This document shows positions 1-16,455 of a DNA stretch of 59,589 nt, piece by piece (the first letter of the stretch is position 1; every line of letters begins with the position of its first letter). The notes under the pieces are model-generated. The model did not search any database, was not told the origin of the DNA, and saw only the letters and a list, made by a program, of their open reading frames with translations. Source of the stretch: Candidatus Anderseniibacteriota bacterium (GTDB lineage: Bacteria; Patescibacteriota; JAUYIX01); assembly GCA_046350905.1 (NCBI GenBank), contig JAXLZN010000005.1:1-59589 (forward strand), written 5' to 3'. The position numbers were made by a program, and so were the translations under genes.

Positions 1-2252
1 TCATCTGCGGTTGGCTTGTGCCGAGGCCGCTCTACGATCTGGTGGGCAAGCTCTTCGCGGTAGCGCGCCATGATCTGAATCGAGTAGTCGATTCCCAAAC
101 CTACCGCCAGCACTGCTACGGTCGCATTGAGCGGCGTGAGTTCGATCCCCAGGACTGGGAGGACTCCCATGCCGATAGCGGCCCCGAAGATAGTGGGCAG
201 CGAGGTAATCAGCCCGGTCACCAAGCTGCGGTACAGGATTGAGAGCAGCACAATAATGAAAACCCCGGTCACGATGCTGGCCACGGTGGCAGAGTTCATG
301 CTGTCGTTGAGAGTCAGGGAGAGTGCCAGGAACTCACCTGCAACCTGCACGTGGTAGTCAGGCAAAAAAGGAGCAGCGGTGGCCTCGAGCTCGCTGTACA
401 TCTCCTTGATGCGCTTGGAGTCGGAGAGCTTTGGCCAGAACTTGACGACGGTGGCGTCGTAGCGGGGCTGGCCCTCCTCCGGCTGTGGATTTTGGTGTAC
501 CAACCTACCGAATAGCTCACGCGCGGTGGTACCGAGCACCCGGTTCACTACCAGGTCGCTGCTCTTGACCTGGTCAAAGAATGCACTGCGGTCCGTGGGA
601 ATGCTCTCGGGCAAGAAGAGTCCCGTGAAGTACCGTAGCGACTCGACGTTGACCTTGCCCTGAATGTGCTCCACGTCTTGGAAGCTGTCGAGCTTGGCCT
701 CGAGCGCCTGGACCAGCTCGTCGGCGCGAGGGTTGAGGATGTCGCCGTGGATCACGACGTAGTGCGGTTCAAAGACCGAGAAGTGCTGCTGCTCAAACTG
801 GTACGCCCCGTAGGTCGGAAAGTCCCTGGCCATGTAGGTGGTGGGCCGGTGGTTGCGGTCGATGCGTGTGATCATGAAGCACGCTCCCGCAAGGAGCAGG
901 AGCGCGGTGACCGCTACGAGCACTCGCCGGCGGCGCAACCACCAGTAGACGCGCTGCCCCCAGTAGAACTCACGTTCGTGGCTGCCTCGACCCGCACCCT
1001 GTTCGGGCGTTGCTCTTACCGTGCTTGGGTGCTCACTCGCCCGGCGACCGTGCAGCACCAGGAGCGCCCCGCCGAGCAGGTAGGTGAGCACAAAAGCAGC
1101 CGCAATACCGAGCACGAGCAGGTACGTGTACTCTCGGATCGGCCGCAGGTTGGAGGTGACCATGTCGGCTACAAAGGCCGCTACGTTGATGAGGGTGGTC
1201 AGGGCAGCCGCCGCACCGGCGGTGACAAAGACGGTCCGCGCAGCTTCGCGGCGGGTGTGCTGCGAGGCTTCCTCACGGTAGCGTTCGCTCAGGTGGATGA
1301 GGTTATCAATGGTCTGGCCAAGCAAGAGCGGAATGGGAACAACTGCCAAGAACGTGAAGGTGCGTGACCAGGTCAACGAGGCAAGACCGTACGACCAGAC
1401 CAGCATTACACCCAAGACCAGCAGCGGCATCCAGACAAAGAACCAGCTCCGCGAGGCTCGCCAGAGCAGGAGAGCAAGTAGGGCAACCATGAGGGCCGTG
1501 ACGAGGAGGCTGTTGGTTTTTACGCGGTGGTCGGCTTCGTTGACGACCAAGCCGGCAGAGTAGAGCCGGACGGTGAGGTGCTGCTGCGCGCTACGGGCGT
1601 AATCTCGAATGGCAGCGAGCACCTTGGTGGTCGCGGCTTCGTCCATCGGCTCGCGCGGCACAATGGTAGCGCGCACCGCTGAGATCTTTGGGATGGCGAC
1701 CGGCGATGTTCCGAGCACCCCGGCGCCCAAGCTGTTGAAGTACCCAACGATCCCGAGCGTGTCGATGGCTTCGGGGTCCGAGAGACCCTTACGTGCAAAG
1801 CGCTCAAACTCGTAGGGGTCGGTTCGCCACAGGTCGTAGACCAGACGCTGGATCAGATCGGGGTCGCTGAGCGAACCCACGTGCAGCGCAGCACCGTTGC
1901 GACGAGTGCTCGAGAGGCGTCGGTTGAGCACGGTCGTCAGGCTCTCGACGTTCACCGGCCAGCGGCGTTGGATCTCTGTGAACAGCTGGTCCTGCTCGCG
2001 GATCAGTGCGGGGTCGAGTAGGCTGTACCCTTCGGGAGCCTGGACCGTCACGTGTACAGTCGCCGGGTCGGGCAGCTCCTGCGTGGCGTAGGTAAACGGC
2101 TCAATGTACTTGGGGTAGAACAGGTCGCTCGTCTTAGTAGCCACGTCGGTACGCACCACCAGCAACGCACCGAGTACCACAGTCAGGCTGAGGACGCCGG
2201 CGACAATCTGGCGCGGGTAGCGCTCGACCAGTGCAAACAGTCGCTCGAACAT
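1..2252 (-). CDS. MMPL/RND-family transporter, 3' end runs off the window
   Basis: Hand translation of large parts (absent from the ORF track, consistent with no in-frame stop inside the window): MFERLFALVERYP..., two TM bundles with LGQTIDNLIHLSERYREE and AVGLGIDYSIQIMARYREE motifs separated by large soluble loops. Start at 2252 chosen because TAGGAT lies 7 nt upstream; alternative ATG at 2261. Confidence 0.85.
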   Translation of the reverse strand, partial: MFERLFALVERYPRQIVAGVLSLTVVLGALLVVRTDVATKTSDLFYPKYIEPFTYATQELPDPATVHVTVQAPEGYSLLDPALIREQDQLFTEIQRRWPVNVESLTTVLNRRLSSTRRNGAALHVGSLSDPDLIQRLVYDLWRTDPYEFERFARKGLSDPEAIDTLGIVGYFNSLGAGVLGTSPVAIPKISAVRATIVPREPMDEAATTKVLAAIRDYARSAQQHLTVRLYSAGLVVNEADHRVKTNSLLVTALMVALLALLLWRASRSWFFVWMPLLVLGVMLVWSYGLASLTWSRTFTFLAVVPIPLLLGQTIDNLIHLSERYREEASQHTRREAARTVFVTAGAAAALTTLINVAAFVADMVTSNLRPIREYTYLLVLGIAAAFVLTYLLGGALLVLHGRRASEHPSTVRATPEQGAGRGSHEREFYWGQRVYWWLRRRRVLVAVTALLLLAGACFMITRIDRNHRPTTYMARDFPTYGAYQFEQQHFSVFEPHYVVIHGDILNPRADELVQALEAKLDSFQDVEHIQGKVNVESLRYFTGLFLPESIPTDRSAFFDQVKSSDLVVNRVLGTTARELFGRLVHQNPQPEEGQPRYDATVVKFWPKLSDSKRIKEMYSELEATAAPFLPDYHVQVAGEFLALSLTLNDSMNSATVASIVTGVFIIVLLSILYRSLVTGLITSLPTIFGAAIGMGVLPVLGIELTPLNATVAVLAVGLGIDYSIQIMARYREELAHQIVERPRHKPTAD

Positions 2253-2321
2253 CTCGGGCATCCTAGCAGACGAGGCACCGCACCCCAGTTGGCTGCGAGC
2301 GGCACCTGCCGCCTACACGAC

Positions 2322-3005
2322 CTACCCCTTGTAGGCGACCTTGACTGCCGGACCCATTGTCGAGGCCAGGGTCACAGACTTGATGTAGACGCTCTTGATC
2401 GTCTTGGGTTTGGCAGACTTGATCGCCTCGAGGGCCGCGTCTACGTTCTTGACCAGGTCCTCCAGGGCAAAGGACTTCTTGCCGACCGGCAGGTGCACGC
2501 TGCCGTACTCGTCGTTCTTGAAGTTGGCCTTGCCGGCCTTGATCGCCTTGACCATGCGCGTGACGTCGGGACCGACCGTCTCAGTCTTGGGGTTGGGCAT
2601 CAGGCCGCGCGGGCCGAGCACCTTGGCCACCCGTCCGAGCTTGGGCATCATGTCAGGGGTCGCGACCAGCACGTCAAAGGCAATCTTGCCCTTGGTGATC
2701 TCGTCGATGATGTCCTGGCCGCCGACTAGGTCGGCGCCAGCGGCCTTGGCTTCGGCCTTCTTGGCGTCGCTGACCACTGCCGCAACCTTGACGTCCTTGC
2801 CGGTACCGGCCGGGAGCGCGACCGAGCCGCGCACGGTCTGGTCAGACTGCTTGGCGTCGACGCCGAGCCGCACGTGCAGCTCGACCGTCGCGTCGAACTT
2901 TTCGTTGCTCTTGTCTTTTACAAAGGTGAGCGCGTCCTTGACCGCGACCGGCTCCTTGGGAGCGGCTGCCACGAGGGCTTTGTAGCGTTTGCTGGTGTGA
3001 GCCAT
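2322..3005 (-). CDS. rplA: 50S ribosomal protein L1, copy A (intact)
   Basis: 227 aa; KFDATVELHVRLGVD, ATPDMMPKLGRVAKVLGPRGLMPNPKT, STMGP motifs. Confidence 0.99.
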   Translation of the reverse strand: MAHTSKRYKALVAAAPKEPVAVKDALTFVKDKSNEKFDATVELHVRLGVDAKQSDQTVRGSVALPAGTGKDVKVAAVVSDAKKAEAKAAGADLVGGQDIIDEITKGKIAFDVLVATPDMMPKLGRVAKVLGPRGLMPNPKTETVGPDVTRMVKAIKAGKANFKNDEYGSVHLPVGKKSFALEDLVKNVDAALEAIKSAKPKTIKSVYIKSVTLASTMGPAVKVAYKG

Positions 3006-3015
3006 GACGTGCGAA

Positions 3016-3435
3016 CTACTTTACGTTGAGGCCCATGCTGCGGGCGGTGCCCTCGACGATCTTCATCGCGGCGTCGACGTCGTTGGCGTTGAGGTCCTTG
3101 AGCTTGAGCTCGGCGATCTTCTTGACGTCCGCCTTGGAGACCGTGCCGACCTTGGCCTTGTTGGGTTCGCCCGAACCCTTGGCAACCTTGGCAGCCTTCT
3201 TGAGCAGCTCGGCGGCCGGCGGCGTCTTGAGGACAAAGGTAAAGCTGCGGTCCTCAAAGATCGTCACCACCACGGGAATGATGTTGTTTTCGCTGCGAGT
3301 CTTGTCGTTGAACTGCTTGGTGAAGTCCGGCAGGTTGATGCCCTGGGGACCCAGCGAGGTCGCGACCGGCGGGGCAGGCGTGGCCTTCCCGGCGGGGAGC
3401 TGCAGCTTAACGATGGCTTTGATTTTCTTGGGCAT
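3016..3435 (-). CDS. rplK: 50S ribosomal protein L11, copy A (intact)
   Basis: 139 aa; [35 protein letters not shown] motifs; lies between nusG and rplA. Confidence 0.99.
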
Positions 3436-3471
3436 GGTGGTGGAGTGGGGCGAACGTCCGCTCTAGCTACC

Positions 3472-4017
3472 TTAAATTTTCTTAATCTGCAAGAAGTCGA
3501 GCTCGACTGGGGTCTCGCGGCCGAACATGTTGACCAGGACCTTGACCTGGCCCTTCTCTTCGTTGACCGAGGAAACCTTGCCGTCGAAGTCCTTGAACGG
3601 CCCGTCCTGGATCTTGACCGCATCGCCTGCCTTAACGTCGATCTTGTACTTGGGCTCGGCGACACCCATGCGCTTCTGGAGCTTTTCAACCTCTTCGCGT
3701 GCAACGGGGGTCGGGATCGTGCCGCTGCCCACAAAGCCGGTCACGCTCGGCGTGTTGCGCACGACGTACCAGGAGTCGTCCGTCACGATCATCTCGACCA
3801 GCACGTAGCCGGGAAAAATCTTTTCCTCGACCGTGACGCGCTTGCCGGCCTTAATTTTGATCTTCTTTTCCTTGGGGATCAGGATGCTGAAGATCTTGTC
3901 CTGCATGTCGAGCGACTCAATGCGCTGCTTGAGGTTGCGCGCAACGTTCTCTTCGTACCCCGAGTAGGTGTGGAGTACGTACCAGTTGCGTTCCTTCTTG
4001 CCGAGTTGGCGAGCCAT
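3472..4017 (-). CDS. nusG: Transcription termination/antitermination factor NusG, copy A (intact)
   Basis: 181 aa; [45 protein letters not shown]. Confidence 0.99.
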   Translation of the reverse strand: MARQLGKKERNWYVLHTYSGYEENVARNLKQRIESLDMQDKIFSILIPKEKKIKIKAGKRVTVEEKIFPGYVLVEMIVTDDSWYVVRNTPSVTGFVGSGTIPTPVAREEVEKLQKRMGVAEPKYKIDVKAGDAVKIQDGPFKDFDGKVSSVNEEKGQVKVLVNMFGRETPVELDFLQIKKI

Positions 4018-4124
4018 TGCGGGTGGATGCTGCGCGGAAATGCCGCGGTTCTAAAAAACCCCCGGCGGGGGCACGGCGGGACCATACTACAAGCCCGCCC
4101 GAGGTGCAAGGGGCGTAGGCGAAC

Positions 4125-4158
4125 AAAAGAAAGAGGGCCTGGATTGCTCCGGGCCCTC
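4125..4158 (-). terminator. Intrinsic terminator downstream of LysM gene A
   Basis: Minus strand GAGGGCCCGGA-GCAA-TCCAGGCCCTC followed by TTTCTTTT; near-identical copy at 11544-11576. Confidence 0.8.
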
Positions 4159-4199
4159 GATGGATGTGAACCGCGGCGGCGGTTCTCGTGTGTCGCTGG

Positions 4200-5255
4200 C
4201 TAGCTGCCGGCATCCTGCTCCGGCTCATCACGCTGGACGAACACTCCGTGGGTGACCTCGGCGAGCTCGGAGAGCTGCCGTGGATCACGCTTGGTCTCAC
4301 GTAGGTAGCTGACTACCACGGGCGGCATGCCCTCGGTCATGTGCTGCCAGCCCCGGCGCCACTCGCCCTGCTGCCGCGTGACCACCACGATGCCGGCTGG
4401 GTGTGGATCCGCCGCCCGCCAGATGGTGTCCATCACAACAAAGCGGTCGTTGTCGACCTCCTCACGGTCGACCACCCAGCGATCACCGCCGGTCCTGAAC
4501 GTGGTCCAGGTACCGTCGCCAAAGTACACAATGGCGCTGACGGTCTTGCCTGCTACGCGGACCGCCTGGGCAAACTGCCGGGCCGCCTCGGCGCACTCCG
4601 CGCAGTCGGGATCTTCGTCGACGACGATGGCAACCGTGTCGCCCTCGACGACCGTGAGCGCCTCGGCCACTGATGCAGGTGCATCGTCGGTAAGCGGCAG
4701 CTGGAGCGTCGCGCCGATGAGGTGTTCTTCCCCGGCGTCGAGCTGGCCAAAGTCGTAGCCCGCTTTCTGCGAGAGTCCTGCCATGCGTGCGACGTCGCGG
4801 CGATCCCAGCAGTCTTGCCGTAGCAACTGCTGGACCCAGTTACGCTCGACCTGGTCGAGTTTGTCCAAGGCCTGTTGGTAGCGCCGGTGCTGGCCGCGCC
4901 CCTCGTAGGCGTCTCGGACGACCTTTTCATTGGCCAGCAGCAGCTCAACGGGCGAGAGGCTGTACTGGGCCGCGATACCTTGCAACGTGTCACGGCTCTG
5001 CACGAGGTACGAAGCAGCTACGTGCACGACGTGCTCCTCTGCATCCGGCACGAGAGCGGTGACAGCCGGCGCTGGGGGTGCAGGCACTGGCGTTGCACTG
5101 GGCACGGGCGGCACGGTAGCCACCGGTGTCGGGGTAGGGATTGGGGTGGGCAACGATCCACCGTTCCATGCTTCAGGGTTGGAACGGCACCCCGCTAGAC
5201 CAACGAGAAAAAACGTGGCCGCGAGCAGCGCGGCGGAGAGGGTGCGTGGGTACAT
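4200..5255 (-). CDS. Lipoprotein with LysM-like domain and C-terminal alpha/beta (vWA-like?) domain, allele A
   Basis: 351 aa; lipobox LAG-C, Pro/Thr linker, SRDTLQGIAAQYSLSPVELLLAN LysM signature, VDEDPDCAEC segment after a hydrophobic strand. Confidence 0.7.
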   Translation of the reverse strand: MYPRTLSAALLAATFFLVGLAGCRSNPEAWNGGSLPTPIPTPTPVATVPPVPSATPVPAPPAPAVTALVPDAEEHVVHVAASYLVQSRDTLQGIAAQYSLSPVELLLANEKVVRDAYEGRGQHRRYQQALDKLDQVERNWVQQLLRQDCWDRRDVARMAGLSQKAGYDFGQLDAGEEHLIGATLQLPLTDDAPASVAEALTVVEGDTVAIVVDEDPDCAECAEAARQFAQAVRVAGKTVSAIVYFGDGTWTTFRTGGDRWVVDREEVDNDRFVVMDTIWRAADPHPAGIVVVTRQQGEWRRGWQHMTEGMPPVVVSYLRETKRDPRQLSELAEVTHGVFVQRDEPEQDAGS

Positions 5256-5352
5256 GAGGTGCTCTCTCTTTCTCCGGGCCGCGCCCGGGGTACAGGTTCG
5301 CTCCCGCGCGGTGCGCCTACAGCGCAGCTAGCTTGGGAATGAACAAGCCGTC

Positions 5353-5381
5353 GTCGTAGCACACGACGGCAGCCAGGTCAA
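5353..5381 (-). promoter_or_regulatory. Sigma70-type promoter of LysM gene A
   Basis: TTGACC-N17-TACGAC; same spacing in copy B (TTGACC-N17-TACCAC, 12796-12824). Confidence 0.6.
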
Positions 5382-5413
5382 GGTGCGCCGCGCGGCGCTT
5401 CTACCGTGTCACG

Positions 5414-5908
5414 CTACGGCGTTGCGTTTGTTGCGTTGCTCTGCGGCTGGTTGCGCGCTTCGTTGGTTGGCTTGGTCGAGTTGCTTGTGGTGTTGCTGCT
5501 GCTAGGCGTCACGATGATGGGCGATACAGCGATAATCTTGTGGTCGTTGCTGCGGTAGATGATCGCTTGGGTGGGGTAGACCAGGAGCGTGTCGCCGTTC
5601 TTGGCGTCCTTGTAAAACGTGGCGTTGGATTGCCGCAGCTTGTCTGCGTCGGTGATGGTCGCGACCGTCGGCTGCTCGCTCGGCAGTAGGATCAGCTTGC
5701 CCACATCGTTGATCATCTGCTGGCTAGCCTCTTGCGCCAGCTTGGTCTGCGCCTCCGGTTGCCGGAGCGAACGGTTGAGCCAGAACATGTACACCAATCC
5801 GGCCGCGAGCACGAGTACCGCGAGCCAGAGTGCAACGAGCATGCCGCGACCGCTCTTTTTTGGAGCAGGTGCCGGCACGGCCGTGGCGGTGGTCGTACGG
5901 TCAGTCAT
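5414..5908 (-). CDS. Single-TM hypothetical membrane protein
   Basis: ORF 5414..5914; ATG at 5908 preferred (TTGACT-N17-TACCGT ends 8 nt upstream); TM helix then VGKLILLPSEQPTVATITD...AIIYRS domain of a kind I associate with CPR genomes. Confidence 0.75.
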   Translation of the reverse strand: MTDRTTTATAVPAPAPKKSGRGMLVALWLAVLVLAAGLVYMFWLNRSLRQPEAQTKLAQEASQQMINDVGKLILLPSEQPTVATITDADKLRQSNATFYKDAKNGDTLLVYPTQAIIYRSNDHKIIAVSPIIVTPSSSNTTSNSTKPTNEARNQPQSNATNATP

Positions 5909-5962
5909 CTGCACCCACGGTACGCGCCGCGGCCGCGCCAGTCAACGCTAGTTGTGGACGGG

Positions 5963-8900
5963 CTAGTAGTACTCACACTTGCTGCCCGCCTTGGCAACGT
6001 TGCCACCAGCGACAGCGACCTCTGATGCGTCGCGCACGGTGACCGTACCGCTGGCAGAGGGCAGCACGTAGCCGCTGATCACGGCGAGGTTCGCTCCGGC
6101 GGCGGAGGTGGCGTTGGCCGCCCCCGGTGAATCGTAGGCTTGGACCATGGCGTTGCGCGTCGAGGTCGTGGCCGTCAGCGTGTACTCCGACTGGTACATC
6201 AGCGCCGTAGTTGCCGGACCGTTGATCGACCAGCGCGAGCCAGTCGTGGTTGCGTTGGTCGTAAAGTAGATCGTGCACTGGAAGCTCGTCAGCGTTCCCG
6301 AGGTCACCGGAAACGCCAGCCCGGTAACGTTAGCGTACGCCGTCGTGGCGTTGGTGACGTCCGCGCCGAGCGTGACGAGGGTACGCTCGATGCAGTTGGC
6401 CCAGGCCCCGTTTTCAAAGCAGCGGAACTTGCTGGTGCTCGCGCTGTAGTACATCTTGCCGTTGGAACCGGCAGGGTCGCCCGCATCTGATTTTACGTCC
6501 AAGCCGAGGAGGTCTGGCGTGGTCGAACCCGCTCCATCAACACCGAGCTGCAGCGTGGCGCTCGTGCCGCTGCCGGCCGGTTGCAGCGTGATGTTGCCGG
6601 TCACCGAGTCGATCGTCATGCCGCTGTTGCCCTCGAGCGTGAGCGTGCCGGCCGAGGTTTTCCAGGTTGCCCCGGCCGCGGAGGTGATCGTGAGCCCACC
6701 GGTCGTGGTGGACCAGGTCGAGGCCGCGCCACCCGTGAGCGTCAGGGCGCCACTGGAGGTGAACTGCGAAGCCGCCGTCGGGGTGAGGTTCACCGCACCC
6801 GCACCCGTCACGTTAAAGCTGCCGCTCGTCAGCGTGAACGCGATTGGCGTCGCACCGGCAGTGGTGATCGTCGCCCCGTTGTTGTACGCGGTTTGGAGCG
6901 TCGCAGCCCCGGTGGTGTCGCAGTCTTTCCACGCTCCCCCTTCAAAGCAGCGGAACTTACTGGTGCTCGCGCTGTAGTACATCTTGCCGTTGGCGCCCGC
7001 GGGATCACCAGCATCAGACTTGACGTCGAGGCCGAGCAGGTCGGGTGTAGTGGAGCCGGCTCCTCCCACACCGAGCTGGACGGTAGCCGTTGTGCTGCTC
7101 CCCGCCGGCTGCAGCGTCAGGTTGCCGGTGACCGTATTGAGGGTGAGACCACTGTTACCCTCGAGCGTGAGTAAACCCGCCGAAGTTTTCCAGGTTGAGG
7201 CTGCCCCACCGGTCAGGGTCAGCGCCGCCCCGGAGGTAAACTGCGAGGCGGCGGCGGGCGTCAGGTTGACCTCGCCGGCGCCCGACACGTTGAAGTTGCC
7301 GCTCGTGAGGGTAAAGGCGATGGGGTTTGCGGCGGCGGTCGTAATGGTCGCGCCGTTGTTGTAAGCACTCTGCAGCGTAGCCGCAGTTCCAACCTCGTCC
7401 GGGGCGCACTGCCAGTGGTCACCGGTCTCATCCCACTTGAGAATCTGCGTGTCAGCGCAGCCTTGCAGGAGCGCCACACCTGAGGCCAGCACCTCCAAGC
7501 CTGAGCCAGAGTTGGTGGTGCTCGAGAGTGCGTCGGCCGAGGGCGCGACGGTCAGGTCGATGCTGTCGGCGTTGACGACAATGCCGCCGTTGCTGGAGAC
7601 TACCGCGACGGTGGGGGCGGATCCCTCGCCAGAAGCATCACCGGTCAGACCTCCCCCCGCCGTGAGCGTAGCCACGTAGTCTCCCGTCGTCTCACCACCA
7701 AGCGCAACACAGCTGGAGCAGCCCAGGTCAGTTGCCGTGATGGTACCCGAGCCGGAGGTCGTGAGTGAACCACCCGTATCGACAACCAGCGCGCTGGTAT
7801 TGGAGCCAGCCGTGACTTGATCGAACCCCATCAGGCAGGTTGCCCCGCCGGAGATGCACACCGTGCCAGCCTCGTCTGGAAACGTGTAGGTTTTGTCGCC
7901 CGTGAGATCACCGACATCCAGCTGGCCGTAGAATGCGCCGCCCGCCGACTCGAGTACCCTGAGCTCGGAGGAGGCGTTGTTGAGCACCACATCAAACGCG
8001 CCACTCTGCACCCAGTCGGTGGTGAGGTTGCCGAGCGAGACGACGTTCCCCGGCGTTTGCAGTCCGCTCGCAAAGCTAAAGTCAACCGCTGCCGACAGCT
8101 GGACCCACTGGTCCGGTGTTAGGGCGGTCGAAAACACAAACGACACGTTGTGGTAAAAGGCGTTGACGTTTTGCACAAAGACCGCGTCGTTGTTTGCGGC
8201 TACCGTAAACGTGTAGCTGTAGGGTGGCACACCTGGATCCACTACCCCGAGGTTGTTCTTCTGTCCGGTCATCCCACCCGTGGGTGTGGTAGCTGACTTG
8301 AAGGCCACCCCAAACCGATCGCCTGGCACCATTGACTTGATTAAGACCCAGCTCCCAGATTGACACTGGACCAGGTCACCCACGGCAAAGCCTCCCCAGA
8401 CAGCGTTCACAAAGTACCCATCCAAGTTGTTACCGGGGGTGCAGGTCGGGTCTACGACCGCCTCGCCCACCACGTTGATGAGCTCAACGGGCTGCTGCCA
8501 GTTCAACCCAACGGCAAGGTTGTCGACGTAGGTCTTGACCGCGAGCTGCGTGGGGTACTCGGTATTGTTTGCGCCACCGCCGCCGAGGTCTACCGCCGCG
8601 TCCTTGTTGGCAACGTTTTCTGGCGTAAACCCGAGCGCCTCTTGCTTGCTCGTGGTGAGCTGCTGGAGCGCCGACTCTACGTCGTCCGTGACGTAGTACG
8701 TACCAGCATCCACAATCGGCACGTCCCCTGCCGAAACCTGCCCAGCACCGGTCCCAAAATCGATGTTGCTGTCGCCGACCACGCCGACTGCAATACCCGA
8801 TCCGTTGACGACAACGGTGCCGTCCGCGGCCAGGGCAGCCACATCGTCGCTGGTGATCTGCAGCCCGTCACCCACGTTAACGTGCAGAACGTCGGCGGTG

Positions 8901-9673
8901 GTGCCGAGTCCGTTGGTAGGTGAGTCGTTGATGTCGAGAATGGGATCAGTCGCGGTGCCAGAGTCGGAGAGGCCGCTGCCTGCCGTGACACTTGTTACGA
9001 CGCCGGTGGTGAGGGTCGTCCCGATCTCTTGGAGAGCGCCCTCGACTTCGGTGGAGGTGTAGAACGTCCCGACATCGGTGATAGGCAGGTCACTCGCTTC
9101 GACCTGGCCAGCACCGGTGCCAAAGCTGATGTTGGCGTCGCCGATGACACCAACGGCAATGCCGGCGGGGCTGACCGTGATGGTGCCGTCCGCTGCTACC
9201 GCTACGACGTTGTCGGCTGAGAGACCGAGACCGTCGCCAGCGTTGACGACGAGGGTTGGCACGTCTTCGGAGCCGATGTTGGCGACACCCTTGCCTGCAA
9301 TGAGGTGGATCACGTAGGGGCCGACCACGCCGGCGGGACCAGGAGCACCTGGCGTACCGGGAGTCCCAGCCGCTCCAATGGCACCCTTGGGGCCGACGGT
9401 ACCTTGGGGTCCCAGTGCACCGGTAATGGCCAGGGGCGGAGTGCTCACCTGCGACACTACGGACGTAGCCGAGCCGGTTTGCAGGAGCGCCACAACACCG
9501 TCGACCTGAGTCTGCAGACTGCCAACCCGACGCTCAGTCTGCGTGAGACGGATGAGCTGCCAGCTCAGGAGGCACGCCAGCAGGAGAAGCAACAGTGATA
9601 CCCAAACAGGACCCCCCCCAGAAGGGGGCGGGCGGTTCAGGCTGCGTGAGGTTTTGGCACCCGGGGAAGTCAT
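5963..9673 (-). CDS. 1236-aa surface/fibre protein with collagen-like stretch and internal repeats
   Basis: N-terminal TM, (Gly-X-Y)n GALGPQGTVGPKGAIGAAGTPGTPGAPGPAG, Gly/Thr/Ala-rich beta repeats; clean ORF. Confidence 0.85.
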   Translation of the reverse strand: MTSPGAKTSRSLNRPPPSGGGPVWVSLLLLLLACLLSWQLIRLTQTERRVGSLQTQVDGVVALLQTGSATSVVSQVSTPPLAITGALGPQGTVGPKGAIGAAGTPGTPGAPGPAGVVGPYVIHLIAGKGVANIGSEDVPTLVVNAGDGLGLSADNVVAVAADGTITVSPAGIAVGVIGDANISFGTGAGQVEASDLPITDVGTFYTSTEVEGALQEIGTTLTTGVVTSVTAGSGLSDSGTATDPILDINDSPTNGLGTTADVLHVNVGDGLQITSDDVAALAADGTVVVNGSGIAVGVVGDSNIDFGTGAGQVSAGDVPIVDAGTYYVTDDVESALQQLTTSKQEALGFTPENVANKDAAVDLGGGGANNTEYPTQLAVKTYVDNLAVGLNWQQPVELINVVGEAVVDPTCTPGNNLDGYFVNAVWGGFAVGDLVQCQSGSWVLIKSMVPGDRFGVAFKSATTPTGGMTGQKNNLGVVDPGVPPYSYTFTVAANNDAVFVQNVNAFYHNVSFVFSTALTPDQWVQLSAAVDFSFASGLQTPGNVVSLGNLTTDWVQSGAFDVVLNNASSELRVLESAGGAFYGQLDVGDLTGDKTYTFPDEAGTVCISGGATCLMGFDQVTAGSNTSALVVDTGGSLTTSGSGTITATDLGCSSCVALGGETTGDYVATLTAGGGLTGDASGEGSAPTVAVVSSNGGIVVNADSIDLTVAPSADALSSTTNSGSGLEVLASGVALLQGCADTQILKWDETGDHWQCAPDEVGTAATLQSAYNNGATITTAAANPIAFTLTSGNFNVSGAGEVNLTPAAASQFTSGAALTLTGGAASTWKTSAGLLTLEGNSGLTLNTVTGNLTLQPAGSSTTATVQLGVGGAGSTTPDLLGLDVKSDAGDPAGANGKMYYSASTSKFRCFEGGAWKDCDTTGAATLQTAYNNGATITTAGATPIAFTLTSGSFNVTGAGAVNLTPTAASQFTSSGALTLTGGAASTWSTTTGGLTITSAAGATWKTSAGTLTLEGNSGMTIDSVTGNITLQPAGSGTSATLQLGVDGAGSTTPDLLGLDVKSDAGDPAGSNGKMYYSASTSKFRCFENGAWANCIERTLVTLGADVTNATTAYANVTGLAFPVTSGTLTSFQCTIYFTTNATTTGSRWSINGPATTALMYQSEYTLTATTSTRNAMVQAYDSPGAANATSAAGANLAVISGYVLPSASGTVTVRDASEVAVAGGNVAKAGSKCEYY
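6390..7387 (-). repeat. Two tandem ~160-175 aa in-frame repeats in the 1236-aa protein
   Basis: Both begin ATLQxAYNNGATITTA and end PDLLGLDVKSDAGDPAGxNGKMYYSASTSKFRCFExGAW; the nucleotide differences I compared are mostly synonymous. Confidence 0.9.
8651..9253 (-). repeat. Two ~80-aa in-frame repeats in the 1236-aa protein
   Basis: VNxGDGL...AADGT...GIAVGVxGDxNIxFGTGAGQV...VExALQ occurs twice. Confidence 0.85.
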
Positions 9674-9758
9674 CTTGGAAGGGAGAATATCTTGCCAATA
9701 CTACACCACAAACGTCCCAGATTGCTAGGGCGATCAGGTCTCGATCTCTTGCCTACCG

Positions 9759-10441
9759 CTAGCCCTTGAAGGCGACTGCGACACCCGGGCCCATGGTCGA
9801 GGCCAGGGTCACCGACTTGATGTAGATTCCCTTGATCGTCTTGGGTTTGGCCGACTTGATCGCCTCAAGGGCGGCGTCGACGTTCTTGACCAGGTCTTCC
9901 AGCGCAAACGACTTTTTGCCGACCGGCAGGTGCACGCTGCCGTACTCGTCGTTCTTAAAGTTGGCCTTGCCGGCCTTGATCGCCTTGACCATGCGCGTGA
10001 CGTCGGGACCGACCGTCTCGGTCTTGGGGTTGGGCATCAGGCCGCGCGGGCCGAGCACCTTGGCCACCCGTCCGAGCTTGGGCATCATGTCAGGGGTCGC
10101 GACCAGCACGTCAAAGGCAATCTTGCCCTTGGTGATCTCGTCGATGATGCCCTGGCCGCCGACCAGGTCGGCGCCAGCGGCCTTGGCTTCGGCCTTCTTG
10201 TGTCGCTGACCACTGCCGCAACCTTGACGTCCTTGCCGGTACCGGCCGGGAGCGCGACCGAGCCGCGCACGGTCTGGTCAGACTGCTTCGGCGTCGTCGA
10301 CGCCGAGCCGCACGCAGCTCGACCGTCGCGTCGAACTTTTCGTTGCTCTTGTCTTTTACAAAGGTGAGCGCGTCCTTGACGCGACCGGCTCTTGGGAGCG
10401 GCTGCCACGAGGGCTTTGTAGCGTTTGCTGGTGTGAGCCAT
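9759..10441 (-). CDS. rplA: Ribosomal protein L1, copy B (frameshifted in 5' half; error or pseudogene)
   Basis: ORFs 10085..10441 and 9759..10109 give the N- and C-terminal parts; C-terminus KGIYIKSVTLASTMGPGVAVAFKG differs from copy A. Confidence 0.9.
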
Positions 10442-10451
10442 GACGTGCGAA

Positions 10452-10862
10452 CTACTTTACGTTGAGGGCTCATGCTGCGCGCGGTGCCCTCGACGATCTT
10501 CATCGCGGCGTCGACGTCGTTGGCGTTGAGGTCTCGAGCTTGAGCTCGGCGATCTTCTTGACGTCCGCCTTGGAGACCGTGCCGACCTTGGCCTTGTTGC
10601 TCCGCCTGAGCCTTGGCAACCTTGGCGGCCTTCTTGAGCAGCTCATGGCCGGCGGCGTCTTGAGGACAAAGGTAGCGTTGCGGTCCTCAAAGACCGTTCA
10701 CCACCACCGGGATGATGTTGCTTTCGCTGTGGGTCTGTCGTTGAACTGCTTGGTGAAGTCCGAAGATGCCCCCGGGGCCGAGCGAGGTCGCAACCGCGGG
10801 CAGGCGTGCGCCTTCCCGGCGGGGAGCTGCAGCTTAACGATGGCTTTGATCTTCTTGGGCAT
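10452..10862 (-). CDS. rplK: Ribosomal protein L11, copy B (multiple frameshifts)
   Basis: Nucleotide similarity to 3016..3435; ATG and TAG at equivalent positions. Confidence 0.88.
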
Positions 10863-10893
10863 GAGGGTGGAGGTGGGCGAACGTTCGCTCTAG

Positions 10894-11445
10894 CTACCTG
10901 GCCTTCTTAATCTGCAAGAAGTCGAGCTCGACCGGCGTCTCGCGGCCGAACATGTTGACCAGAACCTTGACCTGGCCCTTCTCTTCGTTGACTTCGAGGA
11001 GACCTTGCCGTCGTGGTGAAGTCCTTGAACGGCCCGTCCTGGATCTTAACCGCGTCGCCTGCCTTGACGTCGATCTTGTATTTCTTGGGGCTCGGCGACA
11101 CCCATGCGCTTCTGGAGCTAACCTCTTCGCGTGCGACGGGGGTCGGGATGGTGCCGCTACCGACAAAGCCGGTCACCGACGGGGTGTTGCGCACGACGTA
11201 CCAGGAGTCGTCGGTCACGATCATCTCGACCAGCACGTAGCCGGGGAAAATTTTCCTCGACCGTGACGCGCTTGCCGGCCTTAATTTTGATCTTCTTCTC
11301 CTTGGGAATCAGGGATGCTGAAGATCTTGTCCTGCATGTCGAGCGACTCAATGCGCTGCTTGAGGTTGCGCGCAATGCCTTCGTACCCCGAGTAGGTGTG
11401 GAGTACGTACCAGTTGCGTTCCTTCTTGCCGAGTTGGCGGGCCAT
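10894..11445 (-). CDS. nusG: NusG, copy B (multiple frameshifts)
   Basis: Fragments [28 protein letters not shown] and [25 protein letters not shown]; synonymous differences from copy A. Confidence 0.9.
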
Positions 11446-11543
11446 TGTGTGGATGTTGCGCGGAAATGCCGCGGTTCTAAAACTTCGGCGGCACGGCGGA
11501 CCATACTACAAGGCCGCCCGAGGTGCAAGGGGCGCTTTCGCGC

Positions 11544-11576
11544 AAAAGAAAGAGGGCCAGGATTGCTCCGGGCCTC
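11544..11576 (-). terminator. Intrinsic terminator downstream of LysM gene B
   Basis: GAGGCCCGGAGCAATCCTGGCCCTC then TTTCTTTT. Confidence 0.75.
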
Positions 11577-11615
11577 GTATGGATTGCGAACCGCCGCGGC
11601 GGTTCTCGTGGCTGG

Positions 11616-12697
11616 CTAGCCGCCGGACTGTTCGTCCGCTCCCGTGACGAACGTGCCGCGGGTGATGTCGGCCAGCTCGGAGAGCTGGCGGGGTTGGCGG
11701 TGCGTACCCTCGAGGTGGTGCACCACAACCGGCGGCAGGTTCTGCGCCATGTCGCGCCAGCCGCGACGCTGTCGTTGCCTGCGGTTCGTCCCACAAAGAC
11801 GATCCCTCCAGGCTTACGGTCCGCGGCCTCCCAGATGGCACCCATGGTGCCCTCCCGCTCGTAGTCATCCTCGTCGGCAACACGGTGCGTGACGTGCCAG
11901 GCTGCCTCAGAGGTGTCGTACGTGGTGAACTCCTCACCCGAAAAGTACACCACCGCGCTGACTGACTTCCCGGCCCGACGTGCGGCCTGGGCGTACATAC
12001 GCGCCGTTTGTGCACACTCCTCGCAACTCTGGTCGTCGTCGACGACCAGCACGAGGGTGTCCGCGGAGATCACCTCGAGCGCCTTGGTCACCTCCTCGCT
12101 CGCGTCCTCCCCATCCGGAAGCTGCAAGCTTAGGTTGCTGAGGCTGGCTTGCTCCGGCAGGAGCTGCTCGAGGTCGTAGCCCGCCTTGGCCGAGTACTGG
12201 GCCATACGGAGGCGGTCTCGTCGACTCCACATGTCCCGGTGCAGGAGGGTCTCCGCCCAGGAGCGCTCCGCATCATCGAGCTTGCCGAGCGCCGCGTCGA
12301 GCCGCTCCTTGAGCTCACGGTCGTGGTGCTCGTACGCTCTACGGACCGCACGTTCGTTGGCGAACAGTAGCTCGACCGCCGAGAGGCTGTACCCTTCTGC
12401 AATGCTCGTGAGGGTATCGCCTGGAGTTACGACGTGCTGCTTGGGCACGTGCACGACCGCGGAGTCGTCAGGCTCTGTCGTGCGGGATGCGGATTGGTCC
12501 GGTGTCGGCGGCGGCGCGGTTGGTTCGTCCGAAGCCGGAACCAGCGTTGGGGTGGTGGGTGCCGCAGCCGGAACAGGTGCGGTCGTCGTGGCGGGGGTTG
12601 GCTTCTGTCCCCCATCCCATGCGCCGCCTCCGCTGCAGGCGAGGGTCAGGAACAGCAGTGCCACCACTGGGGCGGCGGAGAACATCCGAGGTTTCAT
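11616..12697 (-). CDS. LysM-like lipoprotein, allele B (frameshift near 3' end)
   Basis: MKPRMFSAAPVVALLFLTLAC lipobox; TPGDTLTSIAEGYSLSAVELLFAN; VDDDQSCEEC; stop position inferred from alignment with allele A. Confidence 0.7.
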
Positions 12698-12840
12698 GAC
12701 AGTGCTCTCTACTTTCTCCGGGCCGCGCCCGGTGCGCAATTTGCCCCCGAGCTGTGCGACATGTTGCAGCTAGCTTGGGAATGAACGAAGACGCCGTGGT
12801 ACCACGGAAGAAGCCGTAGGTCAAGCCTAGCTAAAGCACC

Positions 12841-13098
12841 CTACGGGGTAGTCTTGGGCGCAGTGCTGGTCGTCGAGGTGGAGGTGGCGGGTACGCGCGT
12901 GAGCAGCTTGTCGAGGCCGCGCTGGGCGCCGTAGTCAACTACGCCGAGCACGATCGCAAAGACGAGCGAGACGAGGATCACCCGGATGGTGCCCTGGATG
13001 ACTTCCTGGCGCTTGGGCCAGGTTACCTTACCGAGCTCTTCGCGAACCTCGCGCAGGTAGCGGAAGGGGTTGAAGCGCTGCTGTTGATCGTTTGCCAC
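12841..13098 (-). CDS. secE: Preprotein translocase subunit SecE
   Basis: YLREVREELGKVTWPKRQEV motif plus one TM; GTG at 13098 lies 6 nt after TAGGCT. Confidence 0.95.
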   Translation of the reverse strand: MANDQQQRFNPFRYLREVREELGKVTWPKRQEVIQGTIRVILVSLVFAIVLGVVDYGAQRGLDKLLTRVPATSTSTTSTAPKTTP

Positions 13099-13133
13099 CC
13101 GCACAGCCTAGCGGTCCAGTTGGCACCAAGCAA

Positions 13134-13682
13134 CTAGGAGGGGTAACGCGCCTTGAGCTCGGTGGTGCGGAAGAGCACCGAGAGGTAGACCGAGACCACG
13201 AACGGCAGCACGACCGCAATCGCGCTGAAAATCGAGAGTCGGTCAACGAAGAGCAGCGCCAAGCCGTAGAAGCTCGCCAGGATCACGTCGTCGATCAAGA
13301 AAAAGTTGAGGAAGTGACGCTCAGCCTTGCCGGGCTTGTGCATGCGGCGATCGATCAGGTTGTCGAGGATGTCGAGCGCCAAGAACCCAACCAGCCAGCC
13401 GAGGTAGGCCCGCACGTCGTGCAGGTAGAAGATCGCCTGCGTCAGCGCAAAGAGTTCGAGCCCAAGAAAGATGAAGTCAACAAAGTAGTGCTTGGGAATC
13501 TGCTCGACCGTGCGGAACTCCCACCAGGTAAAAATCATGAAGAGCATGAGGTGGAAGAACAGGATCGCCAGCGGAACCTGCCCAAACCCTGGAAACTCCT
13601 GGAACAGGATGAACAGCGCGATGCCAAAGTAAACATCGATCGCGGTGTCGAGAAAGCGGAAGTACTTTGCTGAGACGGCCAT
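13134..13682 (-). CDS. Hypothetical polytopic membrane protein (182 aa)
   Basis: About six hydrophobic segments; GGAG RBS; family not recognised. Confidence 0.75.
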   Translation of the reverse strand: MAVSAKYFRFLDTAIDVYFGIALFILFQEFPGFGQVPLAILFFHLMLFMIFTWWEFRTVEQIPKHYFVDFIFLGLELFALTQAIFYLHDVRAYLGWLVGFLALDILDNLIDRRMHKPGKAERHFLNFFLIDDVILASFYGLALLFVDRLSIFSAIAVVLPFVVSVYLSVLFRTTELKARYPS

Positions 13683-13723
13683 GGCTCCTTTGGCGCTAGC
13701 GTACGCCGCCGCGCAGCGAACGG

Positions 13724-16455
<2,732 letters not shown>

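Follow-up and report, generated by a model that had tools for sequence, protein, structure and literature searches.

On contig JAXLZN010000005.1 of the Candidatus Anderseniibacteriota assembly GCA_046350905.1, the transcription unit for a LysM lipoprotein-like protein, NusG and the ribosomal proteins L11 and L1 (LysM-nusG-rplK-rplA) is written twice in direct orientation, and the two copies, here called A and B, enclose a pair of genes for a large fibre-like surface protein and a small membrane protein. The window analysed is this entire contig (59,589 nt; contig C5), which belongs to a 795-kb metagenome-assembled genome (MAG) of 28 contigs, 78% complete and with 2.5% contamination. Taken as a whole, the arrangement is best explained by an insertion-duplication, in which host recombination with DNA from a sister lineage would have added a second, allelic operon copy together with the fibre pair, the linkage of the two copies being real and the insertions and deletions (indels) of copy B being errors. 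We put the probability of this reading at roughly 0.58.

The anatomy of the repeat can be read directly from the window, in which all the genes discussed lie on the minus strand in the order left flank, copy B, fibre pair, copy A, right flank (Table 1). An earlier note on this stretch, made from the letters alone, had described two direct repeats of about 3.06 kb, each running from a TTGACC box to the rplA stop codon. Repeat detection, blastn and the coordinates confirm that a chromosomal segment, repeated in direct orientation, lies on both sides of the added DNA, with the TTGACC box opening both units on the minus strand (5381-5376 in A, 12824-12819 in B) and the rplA stop closing them (2322 in A, 9759 in B). 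Both unit boundaries therefore hold, but high similarity is limited to about 2.0 kb of the length that the note had given: repeat detection and blastn align positions 2311-4277 with 9751-11687 over 1992 columns that include 102 mismatches and 54 gap openings (90.9% identity), and blastn also matches the leader and promoter blocks (5230-5362 and 12672-12805) at 78%. Further details of that description were borne out as well. The open reading frames (ORFs) found between the copies are just the two reported, for the 1236-aa fibre protein and the 166-aa membrane protein; secE lies upstream of copy B only; the LysM alleles are strongly diverged, LysM-A and the frameshift-corrected LysM-B being collinear proteins of 47% identity; and the 3' portion of rplA-B is free of indels, staying clean over its final 440 nt (9759-10199) as it runs into unique sequence.

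Table 1. Features of the duplicated locus and its flanks (positions in the window).
Feature	Positions	Strand	Remarks
MMPL-family transporter gene (right flank)	3..2261	-	truncated by contig end; Pfam MMPL, E 9e-26
rplA, copy A	2322..3005	-	intact, 227 aa; Pfam Ribosomal_L1, E 3e-59
rplK, copy A	3016..3435	-	intact, 139 aa; Pfam Ribosomal_L11 and L11_N
nusG, copy A	3472..4017	-	intact, 181 aa; Pfam NusG and KOW
Terminator-like hairpin, LysM-A/nusG-A interval	4058..4072	-	copy B equivalent (11483-11492) lost
LysM lipoprotein-like gene, allele A	4200..5255	-	351 aa; weak Pfam LysM match
Leader and promoter-like region A	5256..5381	-	TTGACC to LysM-A start; 78% identical to 12698-12824; upstream end of unit A
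Single-pass membrane protein (mem166)	5414..5914	-	166 aa; shares 40% identity with the 157-aa protein that partners the fibre gene in genus G002
Fibre-like surface protein	5963..9673	-	1236 aa; N-terminal membrane anchor, collagen-like Gly-X-Y run at residues 85-120, internal repeats (family D2)
Junction J1	9674..9758	-	rplA-B stop to fibre start; sole junction without counterpart in relatives
rplA, copy B	9759..10441	-	last 440 nt clean, 85.6-94.4% identical to A; remainder 99.3% (substitutions), frameshifted
Indel-ridden tract of copy B	10200..11760	.	32 indel events plus one LysM-B frameshift
rplK, copy B	10452..10862	-	broken, many indels
nusG, copy B	10899..11445	-	broken by indels; against A, 18 synonymous and 0 non-synonymous sense-codon differences
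LysM, allele B	11616..12697	-	about 359 aa once one frameshift is bridged; frameshift near 11726-11762
Leader and promoter-like region B	12698..12824	-	upstream end of unit B
Left flank	12841..15799	-	secE 12841-13104 (Pfam SecE); 182-aa membrane protein 13134-13682; gyrB-like 691-aa gene 13724-15799

The substitutions that separate the two copies bear the mark of selection. When codons were compared between A and B, excluding those that adjoin indels, 18 of 18 changes in nusG were synonymous, including an AGC-to-TCG serine switch, and the counts were 8 synonymous to 5 non-synonymous in rplK and 15 to 6 in rplA. Pooling the three genes gives 41 synonymous codons among the 52 that changed, where 23% would be expected from random changes (p = 5e-17), in agreement with the earlier claim that the core genes differ mainly at synonymous sites. 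At the sites where A and B differ, the base found in the four outgroup loci (L098, L099, L100 and L018) is that of A about as often as that of B, in every segment. Since the outgroups match both, the B-specific bases are inherited variants and the copies sister alleles; the even split in all segments marks no crossover between donor and recipient sequence. The allelic nature of copy B is thereby seen directly: as judged from these codon and outgroup comparisons, it is a genuine allele under selection in its substitutions rather than a product of sequencing error, and the proposal of two truly different selected alleles stands.

The indels of copy B follow a different pattern. As written, copy B encodes no intact nusG, rplK or rplA, and the 32 indel events in these three genes all fall within 1.3 kb (10200-11498), LysM-B being mostly clean with a single frameshift at about 11726-11762. 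Fifteen of the 18 single-base indels lie in base runs (background 48%), the frame is kept, by a multiple of three, in only 5 of the 32 events, and deletions stand to insertions as 22 to 10. The copy B counterpart of the terminator-like hairpin has been destroyed by two 3-nt deletions, again in base runs. Because of the base-run bias, the loss of frame, the constraint that is otherwise kept and the same pattern in other redundant pieces of the assembly, we attribute the indels to consensus error; they are most likely long-read or consensus errors that went uncorrected where B was too similar to A for polishing, and copy B is probably intact in the cell. A genome-wide scan for noisy tracts by changes of frame in GC phase did not flag copy B, the scan being too coarse.

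If the indels were instead biological, the duplication would be real and copy B a decaying pseudo-operon, which is how its genes look at face value, each of them frameshifted beside an intact copy A that would suffice for the cell. We regard this as highly improbable, given that neutral loss adds substitutions at all codon positions, whereas nusG-B shows its 18 synonymous and 0 non-synonymous differences beside about 10 indels; that the indels sit in short base runs confined to the near-identical part; and that an identical pattern recurs in unrelated redundant pieces of the assembly. It was the codon-position test that led us to reject real pseudogenes.

Identity between the copies varies sharply along their length. 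Within rplA it steps from 99.3% in the 5' two-thirds of the gene to 94.4% and then 85.6%, and the near-identical tract could be either the region of exchange or the product of later gene conversion. An old duplication within the genome, its centre homogenised by gene conversion as in the duplicated tuf genes and with no recent input from another strain, would account for the way in which identity peaks in the middle of the repeat (the 5' part of rplA) and drops outward, to the rplA end on one side and the 47% identical LysM proteins on the other. There is also a second case of near-identity within a contig, in the tandem paralogues of contig C7. We nevertheless find this history improbable. 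The duplication is absent from relatives, including those with a 97.8% identical NusG; the gradient is not monotonic, the LysM leader (78%) being more similar than the LysM body; and the two copies are as diverged from each other as is the co-occurring sister population.

The C7 paralogues (11550-13500) are adjacent genes that combine a pilin-like N-terminus with a lytic transglycosylase domain and share a 729-bp core of 98.6% identity. The same apparent frameshift lies in the transglycosylase domain of both, and the second copy has two further single-base deletions. In favour of a real linkage of A and B, this case shows that a near-identical core interrupted by a few indels also occurs in real tandem paralogues of this assembly.

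Hairpins were also seen in the two LysM leaders, at the same place but with different sequences (minus strand, 5347-5370 in A and 12794-12807 in B). Their stems are GCCGTCGT...ACGACGGC and CCGTGG..CCACGG, respectively, and an identical block, TTCATTCCCAAGCTAGCTGC, follows each hairpin. This suggests a conserved leader structure upstream of LysM in both copies; an Rfam search of positions 1-16000 gave no RNA family above threshold.

Comparison with relatives revealed what the locus looks like when it is not duplicated. The nusG-rplK-rplA block is present as a single copy in 40 of 40 related genomes and in all 80 metagenome loci found via NusG, as the earlier note had supposed to be normal; most of the metagenome loci read gyrB-secE-nusG-rplK(-rplA), and the order gyrB-secE-nusG is conserved in about 60 of the 80. 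The nearest relatives by RplA are 78-81% identical (L098, L099 and L100). One of them (L100), whose NusG is 97.8% identical to the protein of copy A, has the order gyrB-secE-nusG-rplK-rplA, and the other two have nusG-rplK-rplA-MMPL followed by a gene for a giant protein, their MMPL being 70% identical to that of the window. Because these three loci show the corresponding contexts, both the gyrB-secE segment to the left of copy B and the MMPL gene to the right of copy A can be considered native. On this comparative evidence, the ancestral chromosome order, and hence the empty site, is a single-copy gyrB-secE-nusG-rplK-rplA-MMPL. The comparison of this locus among relatives that the note had suggested as a check thus yields an uninterrupted single copy, over which the window has a surplus of about 7.4 kb, equal to one operon copy plus the fibre pair. 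More distant members of the family have gatB after rplA and variable genes upstream of nusG; gatB and miaA, which follow rplA in these genomes, were found nowhere in the present bin.

The position upstream of nusG also helps to place the LysM gene. Directly upstream of nusG in a related metagenome contig (L018:164-1243) lies a gene that has the C-terminal domain of LysM-A in common, at 26% identity and without the LysM motif, beside a NusG that is 91% identical to that of the window. The gap between these two values implies that the gene upstream of nusG evolves very fast, and the LysM gene is, so far as these alignments tell, a fast-evolving resident of this position.

Whether the two copies are joined in the cell depends on the sequence between them. 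The clean end of rplA-B (9759-10199) runs unbroken into J1, the fibre gene, mem166 and LysM-A, and then into copy A. The junctions J1 (9674-9758) and J2 (5382-5413) each join unique to unique sequence and are free of Ns, and a search of the whole bin found no further fragment of secE, gyrB, MMPL or the fibre pair. As the unique stretch is unbroken and there are no duplicate fragments of the flanks, a false join would have to fall between two unique sequences. We therefore consider it probable, from the contig as assembled, that both copies are linked on one molecule in at least part of the population.

This has to be weighed against the state of the assembly, in which the pattern of errors is directly visible. 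Three redundant contig pairs (C23/C1, C18/C3 and C20/C4) are 92-97% identical, and the bin demonstrably mixes two populations at about that level of identity. Contig C21 and C2:4858-10022 are duplicates that differ by 89 mismatches and 65 indel events, most of the interior showing few mismatches and steady indels; the ORFs of C21 are intact, and the same genes in the C2 twin are scattered over several frames. The pairing of C24 with C12:14379-16848 has a similar pattern of a clean and an indel-ridden twin. In view of such twins, the duplication of marker genes in the bin and some of its apparent pseudogenes are to be seen as products of assembly. Another small contig, C25, duplicates C10:5834-7569, one twin again being clean and the other indel-ridden.

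It is conceivable, then, that the window itself is a chimera, in which the alleles of two co-binned sister populations, each single-copy at this locus, were strung together with the fibre module into one contig by the assembler or scaffolder, noisy reads of low depth then supplying the sequence of copy B. Such an origin would fit the redundant contigs and the clean and noisy twins, and the divergence between A and B (85.6-99.3% identity by segment) lies in the same range as that of the co-binned populations. It would also fit the location of the structure at a contig end and the single copy in every relative, and false duplication of diverged haplotypes is a documented assembly error (PMC9516828). 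We think it possible but unlikely, because of the junctions. Both pass from unique to unique sequence without Ns and without a duplicated piece of secE or MMPL, whereas graph-based assemblers change strain within shared sequence and not at points where unique sequences meet. The switch could hide only in the fibre module, which would then have to lie on one side of the operon in the first strain and on the other side in the second, a less economical history than a single duplication.

Several further points weigh against an insertion-duplication on one molecule. No other assembly of the species came to light: exact-protein look-ups of the fibre protein and RplA-A found none, and a protein search with RplA-A returned nothing closer than 81% besides the window's own fragment. 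The duplication lies only 2.3 kb from the contig end, in an assembly that demonstrably contains false redundancy and two mixed populations, and among 120 related loci no other doubling of the nusG-rplK-rplA block was seen. Direct repeats so long and so similar are expected to be unstable. Finally, the proposed breakpoint is weak. Over its first 60 nt or so, J1 shows just a weak likeness to the rplA-MMPL spacer, be it that of copy A or those of relatives (p about 0.05-0.08); homology to this spacer is marginal (p about 0.05), and neither the secE-LysM spacer nor J2 gave any similarity when aligned with J1.

With these reservations, an insertion-duplication remains our preferred account, and what we infer from the structure is the physical linkage, the donor, the route of recombination and whatever deletion between the repeats may have followed. 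An original chromosome with the order gyrB-secE-(LysM-nusG-rplK-rplA)-MMPL would have gained a 7.4-kb segment made up of the fibre and membrane-protein module plus a second, allelic LysM-nusG-rplK-rplA unit. The second allele would have come from a co-occurring sister lineage, as suggested by the divergence of the alleles, the very different LysM genes and the presence of a sister population, and it would have been installed by the cell's own homologous recombination without an integrase. The incoming DNA may have been a linear fragment with one-sided homology and a single illegitimate join at 9674-9758, as in homology-facilitated illegitimate recombination (HFIR); a circularised fragment that entered by a single crossover, as the earlier note had proposed, is equally possible. 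As a predicted consequence of the structure, recombination between the repeats would delete the fibre pair, with a single hybrid operon left behind; the switching of surface antigens that the earlier note had linked to such an excision would be a hypothetical use of it.

The absence of an integrase, which the earlier note had also proposed, agrees with what the spacer contains. Domain and profile searches of its two proteins identified no recombinase domain, no tRNA lies within 12 kb, and the repeats are whole operons rather than the short att sites of an integrase island. The description of the spacer as an adhesin cargo island held up less well. The two-gene fibre pair is present, but it is an ordinary module that is found across the Patescibacteria: of 21 Patescibacteria loci (L101-L121), 13 have a homologue of mem166 after a gene for a large fibre-type protein, mem166 has paralogues on contigs C11 and C4 of the same genome, and in the genus G002 a pair of fibre and membrane-protein genes lies 3.5 kb upstream of nusG. 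The GC content of the spacer (61-64%) matches that of the contig (64%), so the spacer is not obviously foreign. The fibre protein itself gave only a sub-threshold collagen match in Pfam, one weak family of unknown function in PHROGs and no match among PDB sequences.

The fibre gene contains an internal direct repeat of 300 nt (6392-6691 and 6920-7219, 76-79% identical, spaced by 528 nt); at the protein level, this amounts to a module of about 176 residues that recurs. On C11 (7789-10591), a paralogous gene for a collagen-like fibre is broken up into three or more reading frames, either through assembly noise or as a real pseudogene; C11 is 75-77% identical to parts of C1 and may derive from another organism.

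A bolder interpretation would make the locus a recombinase-free cassette for surface variation. The repeats of an essential operon would then serve as permanent homology arms, and RecA-dependent exchange would reversibly add or drop the fibre module; exchange with sister-strain DNA, or between the repeats, would also swap the fast-evolving LysM lipoprotein allele. Since they consist of essential genes, the arms of such a cassette could never be lost. We give this interpretation little credence, for the addition and loss of the module as for the swapping of the LysM allele.

If the linkage is true, the window would record a rare natural doubling of the essential nusG/L11/L1 block in a genome of about 1 Mb, made without the enzyme of any mobile element and at a locus that in the Candidate Phyla Radiation (CPR) repeatedly collects surface-protein genes. 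It would show host-dependent, probably DNA-scavenging cells gaining adhesin modules and alternative alleles of a cell-wall-binding lipoprotein from sister strains. Should the duplication not be real, the public record would wrongly show three universal marker genes as gained and three pseudogenes as present, affecting contamination estimates and marker-gene phylogenies, and the case would serve as a useful warning.

Among known systems, the closest parallels are insertion-duplications, which arise either by Campbell-type single crossover of a circle or, in naturally transformable bacteria, by HFIR of linear DNA. HFIR is named in the literature (for example, PMC3410848). As in such events, direct repeats flank the extra DNA in the window, there is no integrase or att site, the relatives are single-copy and the copies of the repeat are different alleles. 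Unlike in those cases, the homology segment here comprises an entire essential transcription unit, about 3 kb long, and only J1 looks illegitimate, with a weakly defined breakpoint. False (heterotype) duplications in genome assemblies (Ko et al. 2022, Genome Biol 23:205, PMC9516828) offer a second comparison. They too place two diverged versions of a locus side by side, one of them of poorer quality, in an assembly that mixes haplotypes or strains; the present junctions differ in that gaps, Ns and duplicated flanks are all absent, and a unique spacer of 4.4 kb separates the copies. The third comparison is with tufA and tufB of enterobacteria, duplicated translation genes that are homogenised by gene conversion, and that are old, widely conserved and far apart. 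The window resembles them in having copies of essential translation genes with a near-identical central tract and diverged edges, but here the duplication is absent from all relatives examined and forms a direct repeat with its copies 4.4 kb apart. Insertion-duplication by homologous recombination is thus a known kind of event, and the doubling of nusG-rplK-rplA in a CPR genome would be an unusual instance of it rather than something categorically new.

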